Assembly (NCBI GenBank): GCA_963741095.1 | Contig: CAVUGN010000009.1 | Location: forward strand, 32,001-96,000 | DNA: 64,000 nucleotides | Direction of reading: 5' to 3' | Source: an uncultured Candidatus Micrarchaeota archaeon | GTDB lineage: Archaea > Micrarchaeota > Micrarchaeia > Micrarchaeales > Micrarchaeaceae | In this document: positions 51,588 through 57,187 of the stretch, one piece after another | How the letters are laid out: every line of letters begins with the position of its first letter | How positions within the stretch are numbered: position 1 is the stretch's first letter | The notes under the pieces: generated by a model | Seen by the model: only the letters and a program-made list of their open reading frames with translations | What the model was told of the DNA's origin: nothing | The model's database searches: none | Translations under genes and position numbers: made by a program

Positions 51588-52385
51588 ATGGAAACCAAGG
51601 CTCTGCAGAAGGAAAGGGAGACGACGCAGGCAACCATAATTGAGATGGCTGACGCGCATTGCCATCTTGATCTCATGGACCCATCGGAGATAGCCGACTG
51701 CATCAAGGCCGGGGTGATGACCCTGATCACGGACGGCGTGGACACGAAATCCAACGCCAGGGCGGTGGAACTGTCTGACGGCAGGCACATCTTCGCCGCG
51801 CTGGGCATAGACCCGGAGCATGTGCCGAACACGAGCGACGAGGAGCTCGCATTCAACATCGGCCTAATAAGGAGCAACGCAAAGAGGATCGTCGCGATCG
51901 GGGAGATAGGGTTGGATTACAAGTACAAGCCGGACTTCAATGCCATGGAAAAACAGCGAAGATTCTTCGAAGGTTTCCTTGATTTGGCGGAGAGCCTCAA
52001 GCTGCCGGTGTGCGTGCATTCAAGGAACGCGCTTGACGACGTTCTATCGATAACCGGCGAGCGGGACAGCAAAATGGTGCAGATCCACTTCTTCGAGGGC
52101 AACGTGCAGCAGGCAAAAGAGATAGAGCGCCGCGGTTACATGGTCTCCATCCCCCCTCTCGATTCCGGCAAACGAATGAGGACATTGAAGGAGATGGCCA
52201 TAGACAACATAATGGCGGAGAGCGATGCCCCGGTGGCAGTCGGTTCGCCATTGATGGTAAGGAAATCCATAGAGATGATAGCAGCAGCAAAGGGTATGAG
52301 TTTCGAGTCCACGGCTGAGGTAGTGGTAAACAACACGAAGAGGTTCTTCAACCTGCGCGCGAAAGCGGGCCTCATGCGTGCATGA
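51588..52385 (+). CDS. tatD: TatD-family nuclease
   Basis: DAHCHL, IGEIGLDY, VHSR and ESDAP. Confidence 0.93.
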   Translation: METKALQKERETTQATIIEMADAHCHLDLMDPSEIADCIKAGVMTLITDGVDTKSNARAVELSDGRHIFAALGIDPEHVPNTSDEELAFNIGLIRSNAKRIVAIGEIGLDYKYKPDFNAMEKQRRFFEGFLDLAESLKLPVCVHSRNALDDVLSITGERDSKMVQIHFFEGNVQQAKEIERRGYMVSIPPLDSGKRMRTLKEMAIDNIMAESDAPVAVGSPLMVRKSIEMIAAAKGMSFESTAEVVVNNTKRFFNLRAKAGLMRA

Positions 52386-52426
52386 CCGCCCATTAATAAA
52401 TATTCGGTGCGCAATACCTTATGCGT

Positions 52427-52501
52427 GGGCCTGTAGCTCAGCTTGGATAGAGCGACACCCTTCTAAGGTGAAGGTCGTGGGTTCAAATCCCACCAGGCCC
52501 G
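52427..52501 (+). tRNA. tRNA-Arg(TCT); integration target
   Basis: Acceptor GGGCCTG/CAGGCCC, anticodon loop CTTCTAA, T-arm GTGGG-TTCAAAT-CCCAC; 75 nt. Confidence 0.95.
52466..52501 (+). repeat. attL core (36 bp)
   Basis: AGGTGAAGGTCGTGGGTTCAAATCCCACCAGGCCCG, identical to 56698-56733. Confidence 0.95.
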
Positions 52502-53445
52502 GCGTATTTTACGACGACAAAGCCGGGCTCGAATCTGCCAGTCAAGCAAAAGAAGATCGTGCCAAAAGGCGGGTTCGGGGTGCGTTTTGGCCGTCTTCCA
52601 AGCATTCAGAAAGTCGGGAAAACCAGGGTTCGGGGTTGGATTTTCAGGACTTTCTGCACCAAACAGAGGATTTCAGCAACAATGTGTCAAAACACCCGTT
52701 GGAACAGATCAGAGCCATAGTTGCCAAAGTTCACACAAGACGCTTCAGACGCAGAAAAGAGCCACGTTACGGCACCATCAACAAAGGCTTCACCGAACTT
52801 GAGCTGCAACGCTTCCTAAGAAGCGTCAAGAACGACAAGTTCGGGCTTCTTTTCAAGTACCAGGCCTTCATGGGCCTTCGAGTTGGAGAAGTCAGCAAGT
52901 TGCACGTAAGCAACATCGACTTCGACAAACGAGAGCTCACAATACTTAGTGAAAAATCTTCCAAGATGGACTCTCTCATAATTCCTTTGGACTTGTTCAA
53001 AGAGACCATATCATTCATAAATCAGAACAAAGAGGCCATTGAGTCAGCGCACGGCTTCATTTTCTTCAAAGAAAACGACAACAATCACAACGAGGTTCCG
53101 CACGTAGACCTTGATTACGTCAGAAAGGTCTTCCGAGAATCTGTAGCGCGAGCCAATGTAGACCAAATCTATGCCTATTCAGAAGAGACAACCGTCGGGC
53201 ATAAAGAAAGACCATTACATCGGCTTACAACGCACAGCCTACGCCACTACGCGATAACACACTTCGCCAAGGCTACGAATGGAAATATCGTCTTATCCTC
53301 TAGGTTCGCCAGACATGCCAGTCCTTCCACAACTATGCGCTATATCGCAAAAGACAAAGAACAGCTTTACAATGAGATAGATAACGCATTCACAAACAGC
53401 AAAATCGAAGCAATAAAAGTTCTAGCTAATAGACACAGATTATAA
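52466..53445 (+). CDS. int: Tyrosine recombinase, C-terminal part int(C) of a partitioned integrase
   Basis: GLRVGE, HSLRH, RH and TTMRY catalytic residues; frame reads through the att core; no ATG between att and the catalytic domain. Confidence 0.9.
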
Positions 53446-53555
53446 TCATGCTGTCCTGCACTCTTCAAATGGCAAAACCCAAGTAATCGTCAAAAGCCGA
53501 AACTAAAAGTAAGTTATAAATATTATATAAATCACAGCACATAATAGTGATTATA

Positions 53556-54170
53556 ATGTCAGTACAAGGATCAAAAAGTGTTCCAACATCTCAGCAGGTG
53601 CGAGAAGGGATTTCCGAGGTATTTTTCACTGAAAAGACTGTAAAGAGCTCGGAGGCAGTCGCAGCAGTGCCGAAAGGCTACAGAATGGCTCGGCCCGATG
53701 AAGTTGCTTTAAACTGGAAAGAAAGTCCAGCATTTCTGAAAGCATTGTATGATCTTCCATGCGCGGTTTGGTCGGATCAAACAGGACTGACTTCTTCAGG
53801 ACCTCATAAAATAGATGAGAATGGCAAATCGGTAAAGATAACAGAAGCTGAATTTATGGCACTTGACGCTAAAGACAGAAGCTGGCATTATTCAGGAACC
53901 GGCCTTGTGGCCCTCCTCGGCTACCACTACTGGGGCGGGGGCGGGAGCTTGGACGTCAATGCGGGTGCGAGGTCTGACCTTGCTGCCCGGGTGGCTTATG
54001 TCGCCCTCGAAGAGGGCGCGCAAAAATCTGGAAACTCGAATACTGAACTAGCCTCCCTGGTTCGAGAAACTCTACCTCCGATAATTGCTGTGCTAGAGCC
54101 ATCAACGAAGCCAGAAATACTAGAGAATCTAAGAAGTCTGCTAAGAGCGGCATCAGAAACGAAGGAATAA
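53556..54170 (+). CDS. DGR target (variable) protein
   Basis: Contains the VR in frame (GLVALLGYHYWGGGGSLDVNAGARSDLAARVA); TATA-like TTATAAA near 53514 and GTGAT before ATG 53556. Confidence 0.9.
   Translation: MSVQGSKSVPTSQQVREGISEVFFTEKTVKSSEAVAAVPKGYRMARPDEVALNWKESPAFLKALYDLPCAVWSDQTGLTSSGPHKIDENGKSVKITEAEFMALDAKDRSWHYSGTGLVALLGYHYWGGGGSLDVNAGARSDLAARVAYVALEEGAQKSGNSNTELASLVRETLPPIIAVLEPSTKPEILENLRSLLRAASETKE
53901..53996 (+). repeat. DGR variable repeat (VR)
   Basis: Aligns to TR 54403-54501 with 18 substitutions (16 at TR adenines) and one 3-nt gap. Confidence 0.95.
54002..54018 (+). promoter_or_regulatory. DGR homing hairpin 3' of the VR
   Basis: CGCCCTC-GAA-GAGGGCG: 7-bp stem with GAA loop, 5 nt after the VR; absent after the TR. 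Confidence 0.85.
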
Positions 54171-54197
54171 ATATCTGATGCTGTCTTACTCTTTTTT

Positions 54198-54519
54198 ACC
54201 TAGGTTTGCATGGAGAAATCCTGCAAAACATCGCGGAAGCGATGGGTGTAAGCCTAGGAGCCACACACCCGTCTACAGTGCTAGCAACAATTAGGCATGC
54301 TAGACATGAAATTCAGCAGCGACACTGAGTAAGTATCAACTGAAATCGTGAAGCTGCGGTGCGCCACGAAAGTGGCATATAAAGTAGATGGATTAGCATT
54401 GCGGCCTTGTGGCCCTCAACGGCAACTACAACAACTGGAACAGGGACAGAAGGTTGAACGTCAATGCGGATGCGAGGTCTGACAATGCTGCTCGAATGGC
54501 TCTTGTTTACATCCTAGGT
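54198..54519 (+). ncRNA. Candidate structured DGR RNA (5' structured leader plus TR)
   Basis: GNRA-capped hairpins at 54205-54227, 54229-54244 and 54363-54376, further stems, and ACCTAGG/CCTAGGT terminal complementarity. Confidence 0.6.
54403..54501 (+). repeat. DGR template repeat (TR)
   Basis: Eight AAY triplets in the target reading frame; lies immediately upstream of the RT. Confidence 0.95.
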
Positions 54520-54536
54520 CCACATTTGGTAATCCT

Positions 54537-55666
54537 ATGGAAACCTACAGAGACCTTTACACTAAGCTTTGCTCTTATGATAACCTTGAATTGGCTTGGT
54601 TAAGAGCAAGAAAAAGAAAGACACTCAAGGAATACGTCATAGAATTCGAATCGGATTTAGACTGGAATATAAAACAGTTGAAACACGAGCTAGAAACCTT
54701 CACATATTCACCAGCTCCGCTTACTACATTCATCATAAAAGACCCAAAAACCAGAAAAATAAGCGCAGCGCATTTCAGGGACCGCATCATACACCATGCG
54801 ATATGCAACATAATAGCACCCATTTTTGAAAAGGATTTCATCTACGATTCCTTCGCCAATCAAAAACACAAGGGGACGCACATGGCAATCAAGAGACTAG
54901 AGAAATTCATGAGAAAAGTAAGTAGCAACCACAAAGCGGTGCGGGGGGGCAAAGTAAACTTTTTATCAACAAAAGCAATACCGGATACGCCCTTAAAGCC
55001 GATGTGCGTCATTATTTCGACACTGTCGATCATCAGATATTATTGTACATTGTAGAACGTAAAATAAAGGATGCTAATCTTATTTGGCTAATAAAAAAGA
55101 TACTTGAAAACCATAAAACCGTTATTGCAGGCAAAGGAATGCCGCTTGGTAACTTAACCTCGCAATTTTTTGCAAACGTCTACCTAAACGAATTTGACCA
55201 CTTCGTTAAACAGGTGCTAAAGGCAAAATATTACATCAGGTACGTAGACGATTTTATAATTCTCCATAAAGACAAGAAAGTGCTGGAAAAATGGAAAGTC
55301 GCGATAGACACATTCTTGAAAATTAACCTGAAGATAGAACTTCATCCAGAAAAATCAAGAATAGTGCCCATAGTGCGGGGCATAACCATGTTAGGATTCA
55401 GAATTTTTCATCATCACAGGCTCCTTAAGAAGAGCAACGCTCGAAGAATTTGGAAACGCTTAGAAAGATTCCAAGAAAGAACTGATACGGGCAAAATGAC
55501 CGTAGACGAAGCAGCACGAAGCATGGAAGGCTGGCTTGCGTATGCCCGCTTTGCCAATACGTATAACCTGAGAAAAAGAGTTGCTGCAAGATTTAACGCT
55601 TTATTCATAAAGAATCCTTCAGTCCTTCAAGCATATCCCGTTCGCTCTGCTCCGCAAGGCCCATAA
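54537..55666 (+). CDS. DGR-type reverse transcriptase, interrupted by a -1 frameshift near G7 (54943-54949)
   Basis: DPKTRKI, FRDRIIHHA and KGTH in the first frame; GYALKADVRHYFD, GMPLGNLTSQFFANVYL, YIRYVDDF and LGF in the second; one extra base gives a 376-aa protein. Confidence 0.93.
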
Positions 55667-55685
55667 TAAACTCGTTTCGACATGC

Positions 55686-55946
55686 TTAAGCCAACAACCT
55701 GTTAAACTCGTCCACTGACAGGTCCGCTTCCCGCATTATAGTACGCACCATCCCCTTGCCAATCGGCTTGTGGGCAGGCACTACAATCATGTTCTCGGGA
55801 TTCCTTTCTCCAAAAATAGAAGCATATCTTTCCATGTCTGCAAGCTGCATCACGATATGGCTGCCCCTCTGGTGGCTGATAATGTAGCCTGCTCTGGTCA
55901 GGGCCTTCACCACCCTGTCATAATCTATTGGTACCAGCCTAGACAC
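55686..55946 (-). CDS. hicA: HicA-family toxin
   Basis: QRGSH, VVPAH and IGKG...I...A motifs. Confidence 0.9.
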   Translation of the reverse strand: MSRLVPIDYDRVVKALTRAGYIISHQRGSHIVMQLADMERYASIFGERNPENMIVVPAHKPIGKGMVRTIMREADLSVDEFNRLLA

Positions 55947-56148
55947 TTACCTGCACCATCGCCACGGGCACAGGGTTGCCGTGTTTTTTGAGTGCTTCCA
56001 GGTATGCCTGTATCGCTTCCTTGACGTTCTTCATCAGTTCCTTGCGCGTCCTGCCTTCGGTGGCGCAGCCCGGAAGGTCAAGCACCTTTGCTACATACAT
56101 GTTGTCTTCGTCCTTTTCTATTATGACCCTGTACTTCATCCTTTCCAT
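55939..56148 (-). CDS. hicB: HicB-family antitoxin (short, no DNA-binding tail)
   Basis: Y.VIIEKDED..Y.A....LPGCATEG.T..E...N..EAI..Y. Confidence 0.92.
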   Translation of the reverse strand: MERMKYRVIIEKDEDNMYVAKVLDLPGCATEGRTRKELMKNVKEAIQAYLEALKKHGNPVPVAMVQVSV

Positions 56149-56275
56149 GGTTATATCATGGTTGTGCGGATATTAAATCTTTTCCTCGGGTCGCACATCT
56201 CTATCGCCTTGCTTTGCAAGGCTCACGAGGTGCCTCCCTAAGCCAGCAACCTGGCAGTTCAAGGAACCTTACTGC

Positions 56276-56384
56276 GCCGCTTTTTGCCCCCACTCAAAAA
56301 GCGGCCGTTTCTGATGAAACTCTTTTTCAAAGAGTTTCCGCTTGAGCCCGCCGACCGACGCCGAAGGCGTCGCTGGAGGCGGGC
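56276..56384. repeat. Cluster of perfect inverted repeats in the element's non-coding arm
   Basis: 11-bp stem 56276-56305; 10-bp stem with TTC loop 56316-56338; 7-bp stem with GAA loop 56356-56372 nested in GCCCGCC/GGCGGGC. Confidence 0.8.
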
Positions 56385-56657
56385 GAAGGCTTCTTAAGAC
56401 GAACTGTGGGCGTATGTAGGTCGTAACTTAATGGTAAGTAGCTCTCTCGATAAAATTTCGCTCCAAAAAACCTGTCGACGAAGCCGTTCTTAAGACGATT
56501 TCAAAAAATCATCTTAAGTCTCTGGCGTCATCTTTAGTTTTTTGATCGGGTCGAAATTTGTACGGAACCGCACCCGAAATGCGTATAAATCCTAAGCGCG
56601 TAGAAACATTGAAATTCGTGGTTCAATTGCGTCAAACGATCAGGGTTCGGGGTTGCC

Positions 56658-56733
56658 ATGGAAAACTCAAAAAGACGAGAGAATTTGCTTGGAAGAGAGG
56701 TGAAGGTCGTGGGTTCAAATCCCACCAGGCCCG
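56658..56733 (+). CDS. Integrase N-terminal fragment int(N)
   Basis: ATG 56658 reads MENSKRRENLLGREVKVVGSNPTRP, crossing attR in the same frame in which int(C) crosses attL. Confidence 0.75.
56698..56733 (+). repeat. attR core (36 bp)
   Basis: Exact copy of the tRNA-Arg 3' end 52466-52501. Confidence 0.95.
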
Positions 56734-56749
56734 CTGTTTCAGTGATTCC

Positions 56750-57187
56750 ATACCGGACAAAAGATTTTTCATAGGCGTAAAGGCGCTGATCACCGACTCC
56801 AAAGGCAAGTTGCTCATAATGCGTAAAGCGCCTGGGTCTACCGACAGATGGAAACCTTTCTGGGACCTTCCAGGCGGCAAGATGCAGCAAGCCGGGATAA
56901 AAGAGACGCTGCTCAAGGAGGCGAAAGAGGAACTGGGCATAAGCAACTTGAGGATAGGGCCCCTGTTCGATGTCGCGATATCCAATTTCAACATACATGA
57001 TCGCGAAGGCGCAGTCTTGGGCGGCCTGCTCTATGTCCTGTACGAATGCAAGCTACCCGCCGGTTCAAAGTTGAAGCTCAGCGAGGAGCACAGCGAGTAC
57101 AAATGGGTCAGTCCAAACGAGGCAAAAGAGCTGCTGTCCTTCATGCTGCCCAGAGATCTCCTCGAAAAATTGGCTACAAGTTTGTAG
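56750..57187 (+). CDS. NUDIX hydrolase (possible ATA start)
   Basis: WDLPGG......ETLLKEAKEELG Nudix box and LSEEHSEYKW; the ORF-track extension to 56558 crosses attR and is probably not part of the gene. Confidence 0.85.
   Translation: MPDKRFFIGVKALITDSKGKLLIMRKAPGSTDRWKPFWDLPGGKMQQAGIKETLLKEAKEELGISNLRIGPLFDVAISNFNIHDREGAVLGGLLYVLYECKLPAGSKLKLSEEHSEYKWVSPNEAKELLSFMLPRDLLEKLATSL

Follow-up and report, generated by a model that had tools for sequence, protein, structure and literature searches.

How does a diversity-generating retroelement (DGR) without the accessory protein Avd make and aim its mutagenic cDNA? Between roughly a quarter and a third of the DGRs on record lack this protein. The question is raised by an element in a 64,000-nt stretch of DNA, hereafter the window, from an uncultured Candidatus Micrarchaeota archaeon (contig CAVUGN010000009.1, positions 32,001 to 96,000; genome of 1.08 Mb, 94% complete). 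On the plus strand of the window, a DGR target gene (53547-54170, 207 aa) with the variable repeat (VR, 53900-54001) inside it is followed by a spacer, by the template repeat (TR, 54402-54506) and by a gene for a DGR-type reverse transcriptase (RT, 54537-55666). TR and VR differ at template adenines, with 16 mismatches at A sites, which identifies the element as a DGR, and the element holds no unassigned open reading frame (ORF) of Avd size. We found that the spacer, at 54199-54401, is a full-length copy of the RNA family RT-16 (RF03019). We propose, with a probability of about 0.7, that, in an Avd-free DPANN (Micrarchaeota-like) DGR, it is the 5' portion of the template RNA and serves as an RNA scaffold for cDNA synthesis.

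The assignment to RT-16 was made using cmscan of the interval 52300-57000 against Rfam 15, including the RT-associated motifs, a check that the first-pass annotation of this DNA had suggested. RF03019 was the one strong match other than tRNA, scoring 74.4 bits against a gathering score of 50 (E 8.4e-12) and covering positions 1-158 of the 158 in the model, and the copy at 54199-54401 on the plus strand is the only one in the genome. The score extends over the whole model, the helices carry compensatory changes and an RT gene adjoins, its start at 54537 lying 136 nt past the RT-16 end. The RNA is thus already catalogued: Weinberg et al. (2017, NAR 45:10811; PMC5737381) reported it among motifs associated with RTs and assigned it no role.

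Using cmscan, RNAalifold and minimum free energy (MFE) folding, we delimited P1 (54199-54258), an invariant, unpaired linker AGCCACACA (54259-54267) with the CCACACA motif, P2 (54267-54276 paired with 54384-54393), P3 (54281-54286 with 54298-54303), P4 (54316-54320 with 54353-54357 and 54323-54325 with 54348-54350), P5 (54362-54376) and a tail (54390-54401). P4 contains an invariant AGUA/GAA internal loop that resembles the sarcin-ricin loop, and an RT-16 loop is listed as a sarcin-ricin-type match in a 2026 survey (PMC13085918); CCACACA and AUGAAAUUCA are invariant as well. RNAalifold on 23 RT-16 copies of the phylum recovered P2, P3 and P4 and predicted 24 pairs, of which 21 show compensatory changes. 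For the window, cmscan flagged a few non-canonical pairs around P3. The window shares with the Rfam family its helices, the CUACAC/CCACAC linker, the AGUA/GAA loop and the adjoining RT gene. It differs in having local hairpins where the Rfam consensus shows a longer P3 and in a subfamily-specific 40-nt insertion of two hairpins in the P1 loop (54205-54244), which is common to the loci that we number L028, L029, L030, L032, L036, L054 and L055 and whose stems covary in the first five of these.

The first-pass annotation had read the spacer as densely self-complementary, with six local helices and three GNRA tetraloops on the sense strand. Its self-complementarity is borne out by the full-model match and by the MFE of 54190-54405 (-76.1 kcal/mol, z -4.46, 0 of 200 shuffles as good), and all three tetraloops are present. 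The hairpins at 54205-54227 and 54229-54244 were correctly drawn, as were GCAGC/GCUGC, which is P4, and GCCAC-GAAA-GUGGC, which is P5. The two remaining helices did not hold up: GGTGT/ACACC (54245-54269) is not a conserved pairing, since the CCACACA there is the invariant unpaired linker, and in GTCTA/TAGAC (54271-54305) GUCUAC pairs instead with GUAGAU at 54384-54389 in P2. The longer RNA at 54194-54545 also folds better than its shuffles (z -4.87, 0 of 100 as good). Because the minus strand also reaches z -4.15, folding energy alone cannot decide the strand, and the plus strand was assigned because of the covariance model and the G-U pairs. Three other accounts of the spacer were ruled out: chance self-complementarity by the covariance-model E-value and the covariation, a group II intron because no intron RNA domains matched in Rfam, and a retron by the TR/VR pair.

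The position of RT-16 is conserved among relatives. In a phylum sample of 151 genomes, from which RT-16 loci were fetched with 6 kb on either side, RF03019 occurs in 19 genomes at 23 places, 21 of them above the cut-off. An RT gene 60-79% identical to that of the window begins 121-209 nt past the nearest RT-16 in 17 of 22 phylum loci. For 16 of the 23 copies, a Smith-Waterman local alignment that tolerates changes at adenines placed a TR behind RT-16 and, on the same strand, a VR some 500-620 nt upstream; the two repeats differ at 10-24 A sites and at 0-2 other positions. No more than 2 nt separate the TR start from the RT-16 3' end in 15 copies, and in L033 and L038 the alignment puts the true 3' strand of P2 just before the TR. 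As for the remaining copies, two are cut by contig ends, two are decayed (the first copy of L036, and L042) and three are without TR/VR, one of these at a contig start. The neighbouring genes of the phylum loci are archaeal, for example Cdc6, S28e, L7Ae and the tRNA-intron endonuclease.

The association extends beyond the phylum. A wider search for RT relatives confirmed at least 581 among 600 candidate stretches; from the 80 that scored best, the first 40 were scanned. The named relatives are DPANN archaea (Micrarchaeota, Woese-, Pace-, Nano- and Aenigmatarchaeota). RT-16 reached the gathering score in 32 of the 40 DPANN RT loci (19 of 20 and 13 of 20), and most of the copies that share the strand of the RT end about 110-150 nt before it.

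Several loci depart from the simple arrangement. L036:5699-9034 carries two tandem modules of target, RT-16 and TR ahead of a single RT gene; TR and VR of the first differ by 6 non-A mismatches and are decaying, and those of the second differ by 16 mismatches, all at A. No RT was found in the fetched DNA of L024, L027, L028, L042 and L043 (5 of 22 loci): in these loci RT-16 stands behind target-like genes with no RT nearby. An rve transposase occupies the RT position in L027, a TR is present in L024 and L042, and L028 and L043 have none. Such orphan copies may be left over from former elements, or may be distant templates and targets on which an RT encoded elsewhere acts.

A box consistent with a promoter precedes the RNA. 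The TATA-like box ATAAATAT at 54167-54174 on the plus strand overlaps the target stop codon and lies about 25-32 nt before the 5' end of RT-16. In the 48 loci compared, a maximum in AT fraction, 0.79-0.92, falls at positions -30 to -25 relative to that end, and TATA-like words begin mostly at -33 to -28, so that the TAAATA box placed about 30 nt upstream by the first-pass annotation proves to be conserved in position. The distance agrees with the spacing rule between TATA-like box and start in archaeal promoters, and fits an archaeal promoter that would start the RNA at P1.

The RT-16 model of Rfam includes neither the TR nor the sequence behind it, where we found a second conserved element of the module. 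This element, P1' (54497-54519, plus strand), was identified by RNAalifold, pair count and MFE and is complementary to P1 and the linker. In the window, U54497 and G54498 pair with A54263 and C54262, U54501 and C54502 with G54258 and G54257, G54505-U54512 with G54246-C54253, and CCUAGGU (54513-54519) with ACCUAGG (54198-54204), the last being a domain-closing pairing that the first-pass annotation had pointed out. All of these pairs are present in the single-sequence MFE of 54194-54545. The helix spans the RNA from its 5' end through the linker and reaches the last TR nucleotides with the GAAUG motif. When given 17 full-length RNAs, from P1 to the start of the RT, RNAalifold arrived at this helix unaided. 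P1:P1' cells were paired in 93.2% of cases, against 82.5% after shuffling (0 of 500 as good) and 24-44% after sliding, and the covariation score was 0.451 against 0.234, with 8 of 13 pairs compensatory. A set of 27 DPANN loci independent of these gave mean duplex energies of -25.9 kcal/mol for cognate P1 and P1' and -20.5 kcal/mol for non-cognate combinations (permutation, 0 of 5000).

A duplex between the two flanks of the TR is known from the Bordetella phage DGR, in which an upstream:downstream 'cPRT Stop' duplex stands beside the template:primer duplex and marks the cDNA end; such duplexes are predicted in 207 of 278 Avd-bearing DGRs (bioRxiv 10.1101/2023.10.23.563531). The 13-pair helix described here likewise joins upstream to downstream flank. 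In the window its upstream strand (P1 and linker, 54198-54263) is not immediately 5' of the TR and lies about 140-200 nt before it, with the RT-16 core in between.

A second contact with the TR, AGCATTG just before it with CAATGCT in its 3' part, had also been put forward by the first-pass annotation. For this pairing between tail and TR (AGCAUUG/CAAUGCU, 54395-54401 with 54483-54489) the count of paired cells was raised, at 69.7% against 62.4% after shuffling (0 of 500), and about 7 of 17 loci can form the pairing completely or almost so; its covariation did not set it apart, as set out below.

These observations led us to a model in which RT-16 and P1' probably act directly in cDNA synthesis. 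The module keeps the order TATA-like box, P1, CCACACA linker, core P2-P5, short tail, TR and P1'. Pairing of P1' with P1 and the linker would close RT-16 and TR into one domain of about 320 nt, and this closing helix would set the 3' end of the TR, which resembles the initiation of mutagenic homing (IMH*) sequence, beside the linker and the core. The folded RNA could then recruit the RT in cis and present the TR 3' end for self-primed synthesis of cDNA, which would halt on reaching P2 and the tail at the 5' edge of the TR. RNA alone would in this way do what upstream and downstream RNA together with Avd do in the Bordetella phage DGR. That the RNA stands in for Avd completely is a further step, to which we give distinctly less credence than to a direct role in synthesis.

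The location of the module would also suit a regulator of the RT. Read as a 5'-untranslated region, RT-16 and P1' would control RT translation, with P1:P1' opening or hiding the RT start region; the module does lie directly upstream of the RT on the same strand in 28 of the 32 DPANN loci and in 17 of 17 phylum loci with an RT, and P1' ends 4-45 nt before the RT ATG. However, in the four other DPANN loci (L064, L071, L084 and L092) the RT is on the opposite strand, yet the order of target, RT-16, TR and P1' is unchanged: the TR begins 0-1 nt past RT-16, and the VR lies upstream with 12-20 A-site mismatches and at most one other. Because the TR stays with RT-16 when the RT is on the opposite strand, RT-16 belongs to the template and not to the RT message, and the template RNA can therefore be a transcript separate from that message. 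The coincidence of the RT-16 3' end with the TR boundary, within 2 nt in 15 copies, likewise points to the template, and we regard control of RT translation as an unlikely function.

About equally unlikely is a passive boundary or stability element that stops read-through cDNA or protects the 5' end of the RNA. The base of P2 and the tail do abut the TR 5' end, and structured 5' ends generally stabilise RNAs, but a simple roadblock needs neither some 150-250 nt with the invariant loops CCACACA, AUGAAAUUCA and AGUA/GAA nor a covarying helix that reaches the TR 3' end, where synthesis starts.

Less probable again is that P1 and P1' form a DNA inverted repeat, that is, a cruciform or recombination site flanking the TR cassette. 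P1' is a near-exact reverse complement of P1, with up to 21 bp in L034 (-39.2 kcal/mol); covariation alone does not separate DNA from RNA pairing, and DGR targets use a DNA hairpin next to the VR (PMC4372165). Pairing in RNA is favoured by the G-U pairs on the plus strand, which occur at two P1:P1' positions in 8 of 17 sequences each and which fit an RNA of that strand, because in DNA, or read from the minus strand, these positions would form A-C mismatches. Moreover, the helix extends into the single-stranded linker and the TR 3' end, the promoter-like box lies just upstream, and the enclosed core is an RNA family with covariation of its own.

The template-scaffold reading supposes that Avd is absent, and we looked for it in the element, in the genome and across the phylum. 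Six-frame searches of the window's own genome with PF05635 and PF22296 (bAvd) gave no match at E<=1, so that the search in trans called for by the first-pass annotation came back empty. Among the 151 phylum genomes, PF22296 was above the cut-off in none, with one weak match of 18 bits, and PF05635 was above it in 11, including 5 of the 19 genomes with RT-16. PF05635 proteins were never closer than 13 kb to an RT-16, and eight PF05635 loci (with 1.5 kb on either side) held no RT relative (best E 0.33). As they are unlinked to an RT of this kind, we did not count these proteins as an Avd acting in trans. Among 150 ORFs of at least 60 aa between -1300 and +3200 around 22 loci, we found neither Avd nor HRDC, and the downstream neighbours are unrelated from locus to locus. 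The closest DGRs therefore carry no avd (0 of 22 loci), and these searches, together with the covariation among homologs in core and long-range helix, support this much of the first-pass proposal: a DGR lineage that lacks Avd and conserves a structured RNA from target gene to TR.

It is extremely improbable that the spacer is a remnant of avd or codes for a small protein. A 40-aa ORF with a TTG start does lie at 54206-54328, stop-free stretches of 37-63 aa occur in eight insertion-bearing relatives, several ending at the same UGA, and ORFs between RT and target were marked Avd-like by isoelectric point and size in nanoarchaeal DGRs (Paul et al. 2015, PMC4372165). However, the 40-aa ORF has no Pfam match, the residues shared among the stretches fall on invariant RNA nucleotides, and the N-terminal parts of the stretches vary in sequence and length. 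The frame is not conserved in the family: reading L034, which has a short P1, by hand shows a stop codon just upstream that closes it, and P3, P5 and the interval from P1 to the core contain indels whose lengths are not divisible by three. Moreover, 203 nt are too short for an Avd of about 110-130 aa.

The distribution of the two accessory factors across DGRs is complementary. As a contrast set, we scanned 20 of 74 RT relatives from viral contigs, using for Pfam only plus-strand ORFs of 70-200 aa (97 of 170). Where the viral RT was at most 39% identical to that of the window, bAvd lay upstream in 13 of 17 loci and RT-16 in 0 of 17, and three of the four remaining loci had no upstream DNA. Where identity was near 50%, RT-16 was present in two of three loci and bAvd in none of the three. 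RT-16 thus goes with the DPANN RT clade and bAvd with more distant viral DGRs.

Beside this survey, we observed RT-14 (RF02921; 51.9 bits against 48.1) on a viral contig, at L152:1136-1281, just downstream of a more distant DGR-type RT, where it overlaps an ORF (1029-1361) with a weak FGE-sulfatase-like match. RT-14 may likewise be a DGR template-flanking RNA.

A number of observations weigh against RT-16 and P1' as the scaffold for cDNA synthesis. RT-16 was below the gathering score in 8 of the 40 DPANN RT loci, at least one of which (L088) has no upstream DNA, and in the viral locus L134. An unlinked PF05635 protein is present in 5 of the 19 RT-16 genomes, and a very divergent Avd could escape detection, its homologues being poorly conserved. 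The sequences compared are related, so that the shuffle controls overstate significance. For the long-range helix, the cognate P1' was the single best partner in only 5 of the 27 distant loci and among the top three in 13, and in a simple duplex test the cognate pair was no better than shuffles for the window, L029, L030, L041 and L042; where P1 carries the long insertion the test says nothing, as the extended arm picks up spurious partners, and the alignment-based pair count was used in its place. For the pairing of tail and TR, slid controls reach a similar covariation score, which leaves moderate support only. The analogy to the Bordetella stop duplex is loose because about 150-250 nt separate the upstream strand from the TR, which it adjoins in Bordetella. 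Finally, a 170-nt contig from a metatranscriptome library matches 54065-54234 exactly, from the 3' end of the target gene into P1, and thus starts upstream of the proposed start site; if it is RNA it would be read-through from the target gene, and it may also be DNA carry-over.

The RT that the scaffold would serve is 60-79% identical to its relatives and carries the motif LGNLTSQFFAN, the SQ of which we take to be a DGR RT hallmark; its best NCBIfam match is a group II RT, below the cut-off. In the window the gene is split into two frames (54537-55055 and 55004-55666), both of which match PF00078. The break is at a run of seven G (54943-54949, plus strand), the sole G or C run of seven or more in the 64-kb window, and three-frame translation indicates that one added G would restore the frame. 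The gene is therefore not intact. Outside the A sites, the scored alignment of TR and VR of the window also contains two mismatches; more lie at the 3' edge, and there is an indel of 3 nt, in contrast to relatives that have no non-A differences. The broken frame, the non-A differences and the indel suggest that the element has not recently homed. Judged from these features, it descends from a DGR but in its assembled form is probably inactive, the copy being probably switched off or decaying. Logan contigs from three soil runs (depth 2-9) show the same VR, with 53900-54001 identical in the two runs that cover it; they end or start at 54943-54949, none spanning the G7 run, and an exact search of metagenome contigs for the left flank plus G7 gave no matches.

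The break falls at a site of recurrent repeats. Thirteen of the 17 phylum RT loci (the window, L026, L029-L031, L033, L035-L039, L041 and L044) have a simple repeat at one site of the RT gene, between the N-terminal ~130 aa and the GYALKADI motif: G10-12 in eight loci, C9-10 in two, (GA)n in two and G7 in the window. Twelve of these 13 genes are out of frame, in both directions, L041 (G10) being in frame, whereas the four genes without a repeat all keep their frame. The 249 kb examined from these loci contain 12 long repeats, every one at this RT site. A conserved repeat site inside an ORF, with relatives in different frames, is the pattern of a simple sequence repeat that switches a gene, and the tract looks like a contingency locus or a transcriptional slippage site gating the mutator, with assembly errors in homopolymer length as another possible source. 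In the best 80 DPANN RT loci, a set biased to intact genes, 79 were assessed, all 79 were in frame and three had a repeat. Among the matches listed in the literature searched, no title or abstract suggested a repeat tract in a DGR RT. The tract suggests that these archaea with small genomes also control when the mutator is on.

Taken together, these elements can be joined into one bolder and more tentative reading, which we think somewhat more likely wrong than right: RT-16 and P1' would be the complete accessory factor of a large Avd-free DGR lineage, an RNA-only scaffold that recruits the RT in a permuted Bordetella layout, with priming at the CCACACA linker, a stop at P2 and, in Micrarchaeota-type elements, an RT repeat that gates mutagenesis to a minority of cells or transcripts.

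The DGR travels on a very small carrier. Its gene order is integrase, target with VR, spacer, TR and RT, then HicA and a HicB-like gene on the minus strand. The whole is a 4.2-kb islet (52426-56733) integrated at tRNA-Arg(TCT) (52426-52503, plus strand; ARAGORN, and 68.8 bits for Rfam tRNA) and bounded by attL and attR, the 3' 36 nt of the tRNA (52466-52501) recurring as an exact direct repeat at 56698-56733 (100% over 36 nt). The islet has its own tyrosine recombinase/integrase (52504-53445, plus strand, frame open from 52378; PF00589, E 2.6e-12), which is also XerA-like by NCBIfam, below the cut-off. The target protein matched no Pfam or NCBIfam family. At the right end, HicA (55686-55946) and its HicB-like partner (55939-56148) form a toxin-antitoxin pair (PF07927, E 7e-12; PF15919, E 2e-11). 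Near the inner edge of attL a motif containing GGGTTCGGGGT is present twice, and near that of attR once, with 15 nt exact (52564-52588, 52619-52643, 52624-52638 and 56641-56655); these repeats may be integrase arm sites.

Both RT-16 and Avd-free DGRs were catalogued before; as far as we could check, the additions made here are the place of RT-16 at the TR boundary, its P1' partner, the promoter and the complementary distribution with Avd. In the main text of Weinberg et al. only RT-10 is named as DGR-linked and other RT motifs are the subject of speculation (PMC5737381), and in the literature searched, the supplement of that paper excepted, we found no link of RT-16 to DGRs or TRs. RT-16 at the TR 5' boundary together with the covarying P1' makes a concrete, testable object that comprises about 320 nt of RNA and a single RT of about 350 aa. 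Should this RNA prove sufficient, the module would be the smallest self-contained one for targeted hypermutation known, and useful to set against the RT-Avd-RNA particle of Bordetella.

Among known systems, the closest in gene content are the accessory-gene-free 'Architecture A' DGRs (Wu et al. 2018, PMC5758913) and the nanoarchaeal DGRs (Paul et al. 2015, PMC4372165), which likewise have target, TR and RT without avd. Avd occurs in about 74% of surveyed DGRs and is not universal; for a survey of 372 elements, Avd-less DGRs are recorded at 29%, and 75 of the 372 are catalogued as Avd-free (PMC5758913). A DPANN host and orphan target proteins are common to these elements and ours, and the IMH*-like GAAUG at the TR end of the window faces GGGUG in the VR, much as TGGAAT faces TGGGGT in the reported nanoarchaeal elements (PMC4372165). 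The portions of both papers drawn on here describe no conserved RNA upstream of the TR, a place where Paul et al. drew Avd-like ORFs; in one of their genomes, SCGC AAA011-G17 (L065), RT-16 scores 82 bits at the place of the Avd-like ORF.

A looser likeness is to the msr-msd RNA of retrons, which is also a structured non-coding RNA beside an RT, with paired ends, and which templates and primes cDNA. Unlike in retrons, the RT here groups with DGR/group-II-like sequences, the TR/VR differences are adenine-specific and no Rfam retron family matched.

The most informative comparison is with the Bordetella phage BPP-1 DGR, in which RNA on both sides of the TR is needed and wraps the RT-Avd complex (bioRxiv 10.1101/2023.10.23.563531). 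In both systems the TR is flanked by structured RNA, essential in BPP-1, upstream and downstream flanks pair, and the TR 3' end lies beside the duplex. The BPP-1 RNA, which comprises the avd 3' end, TR and Sp and is RT-10 in Rfam (Handa et al. 2018), has no sequence similarity to that of the window, and RT-10 was not matched. In BPP-1 the structured RNA (Sp, 140 nt) is 3' of the TR and binds Avd and RT, whereas the DPANN module has its bulk 5' of the TR, only about 20-45 nt after it and no Avd, and its closing duplex, unlike that of BPP-1, encloses the whole scaffold.

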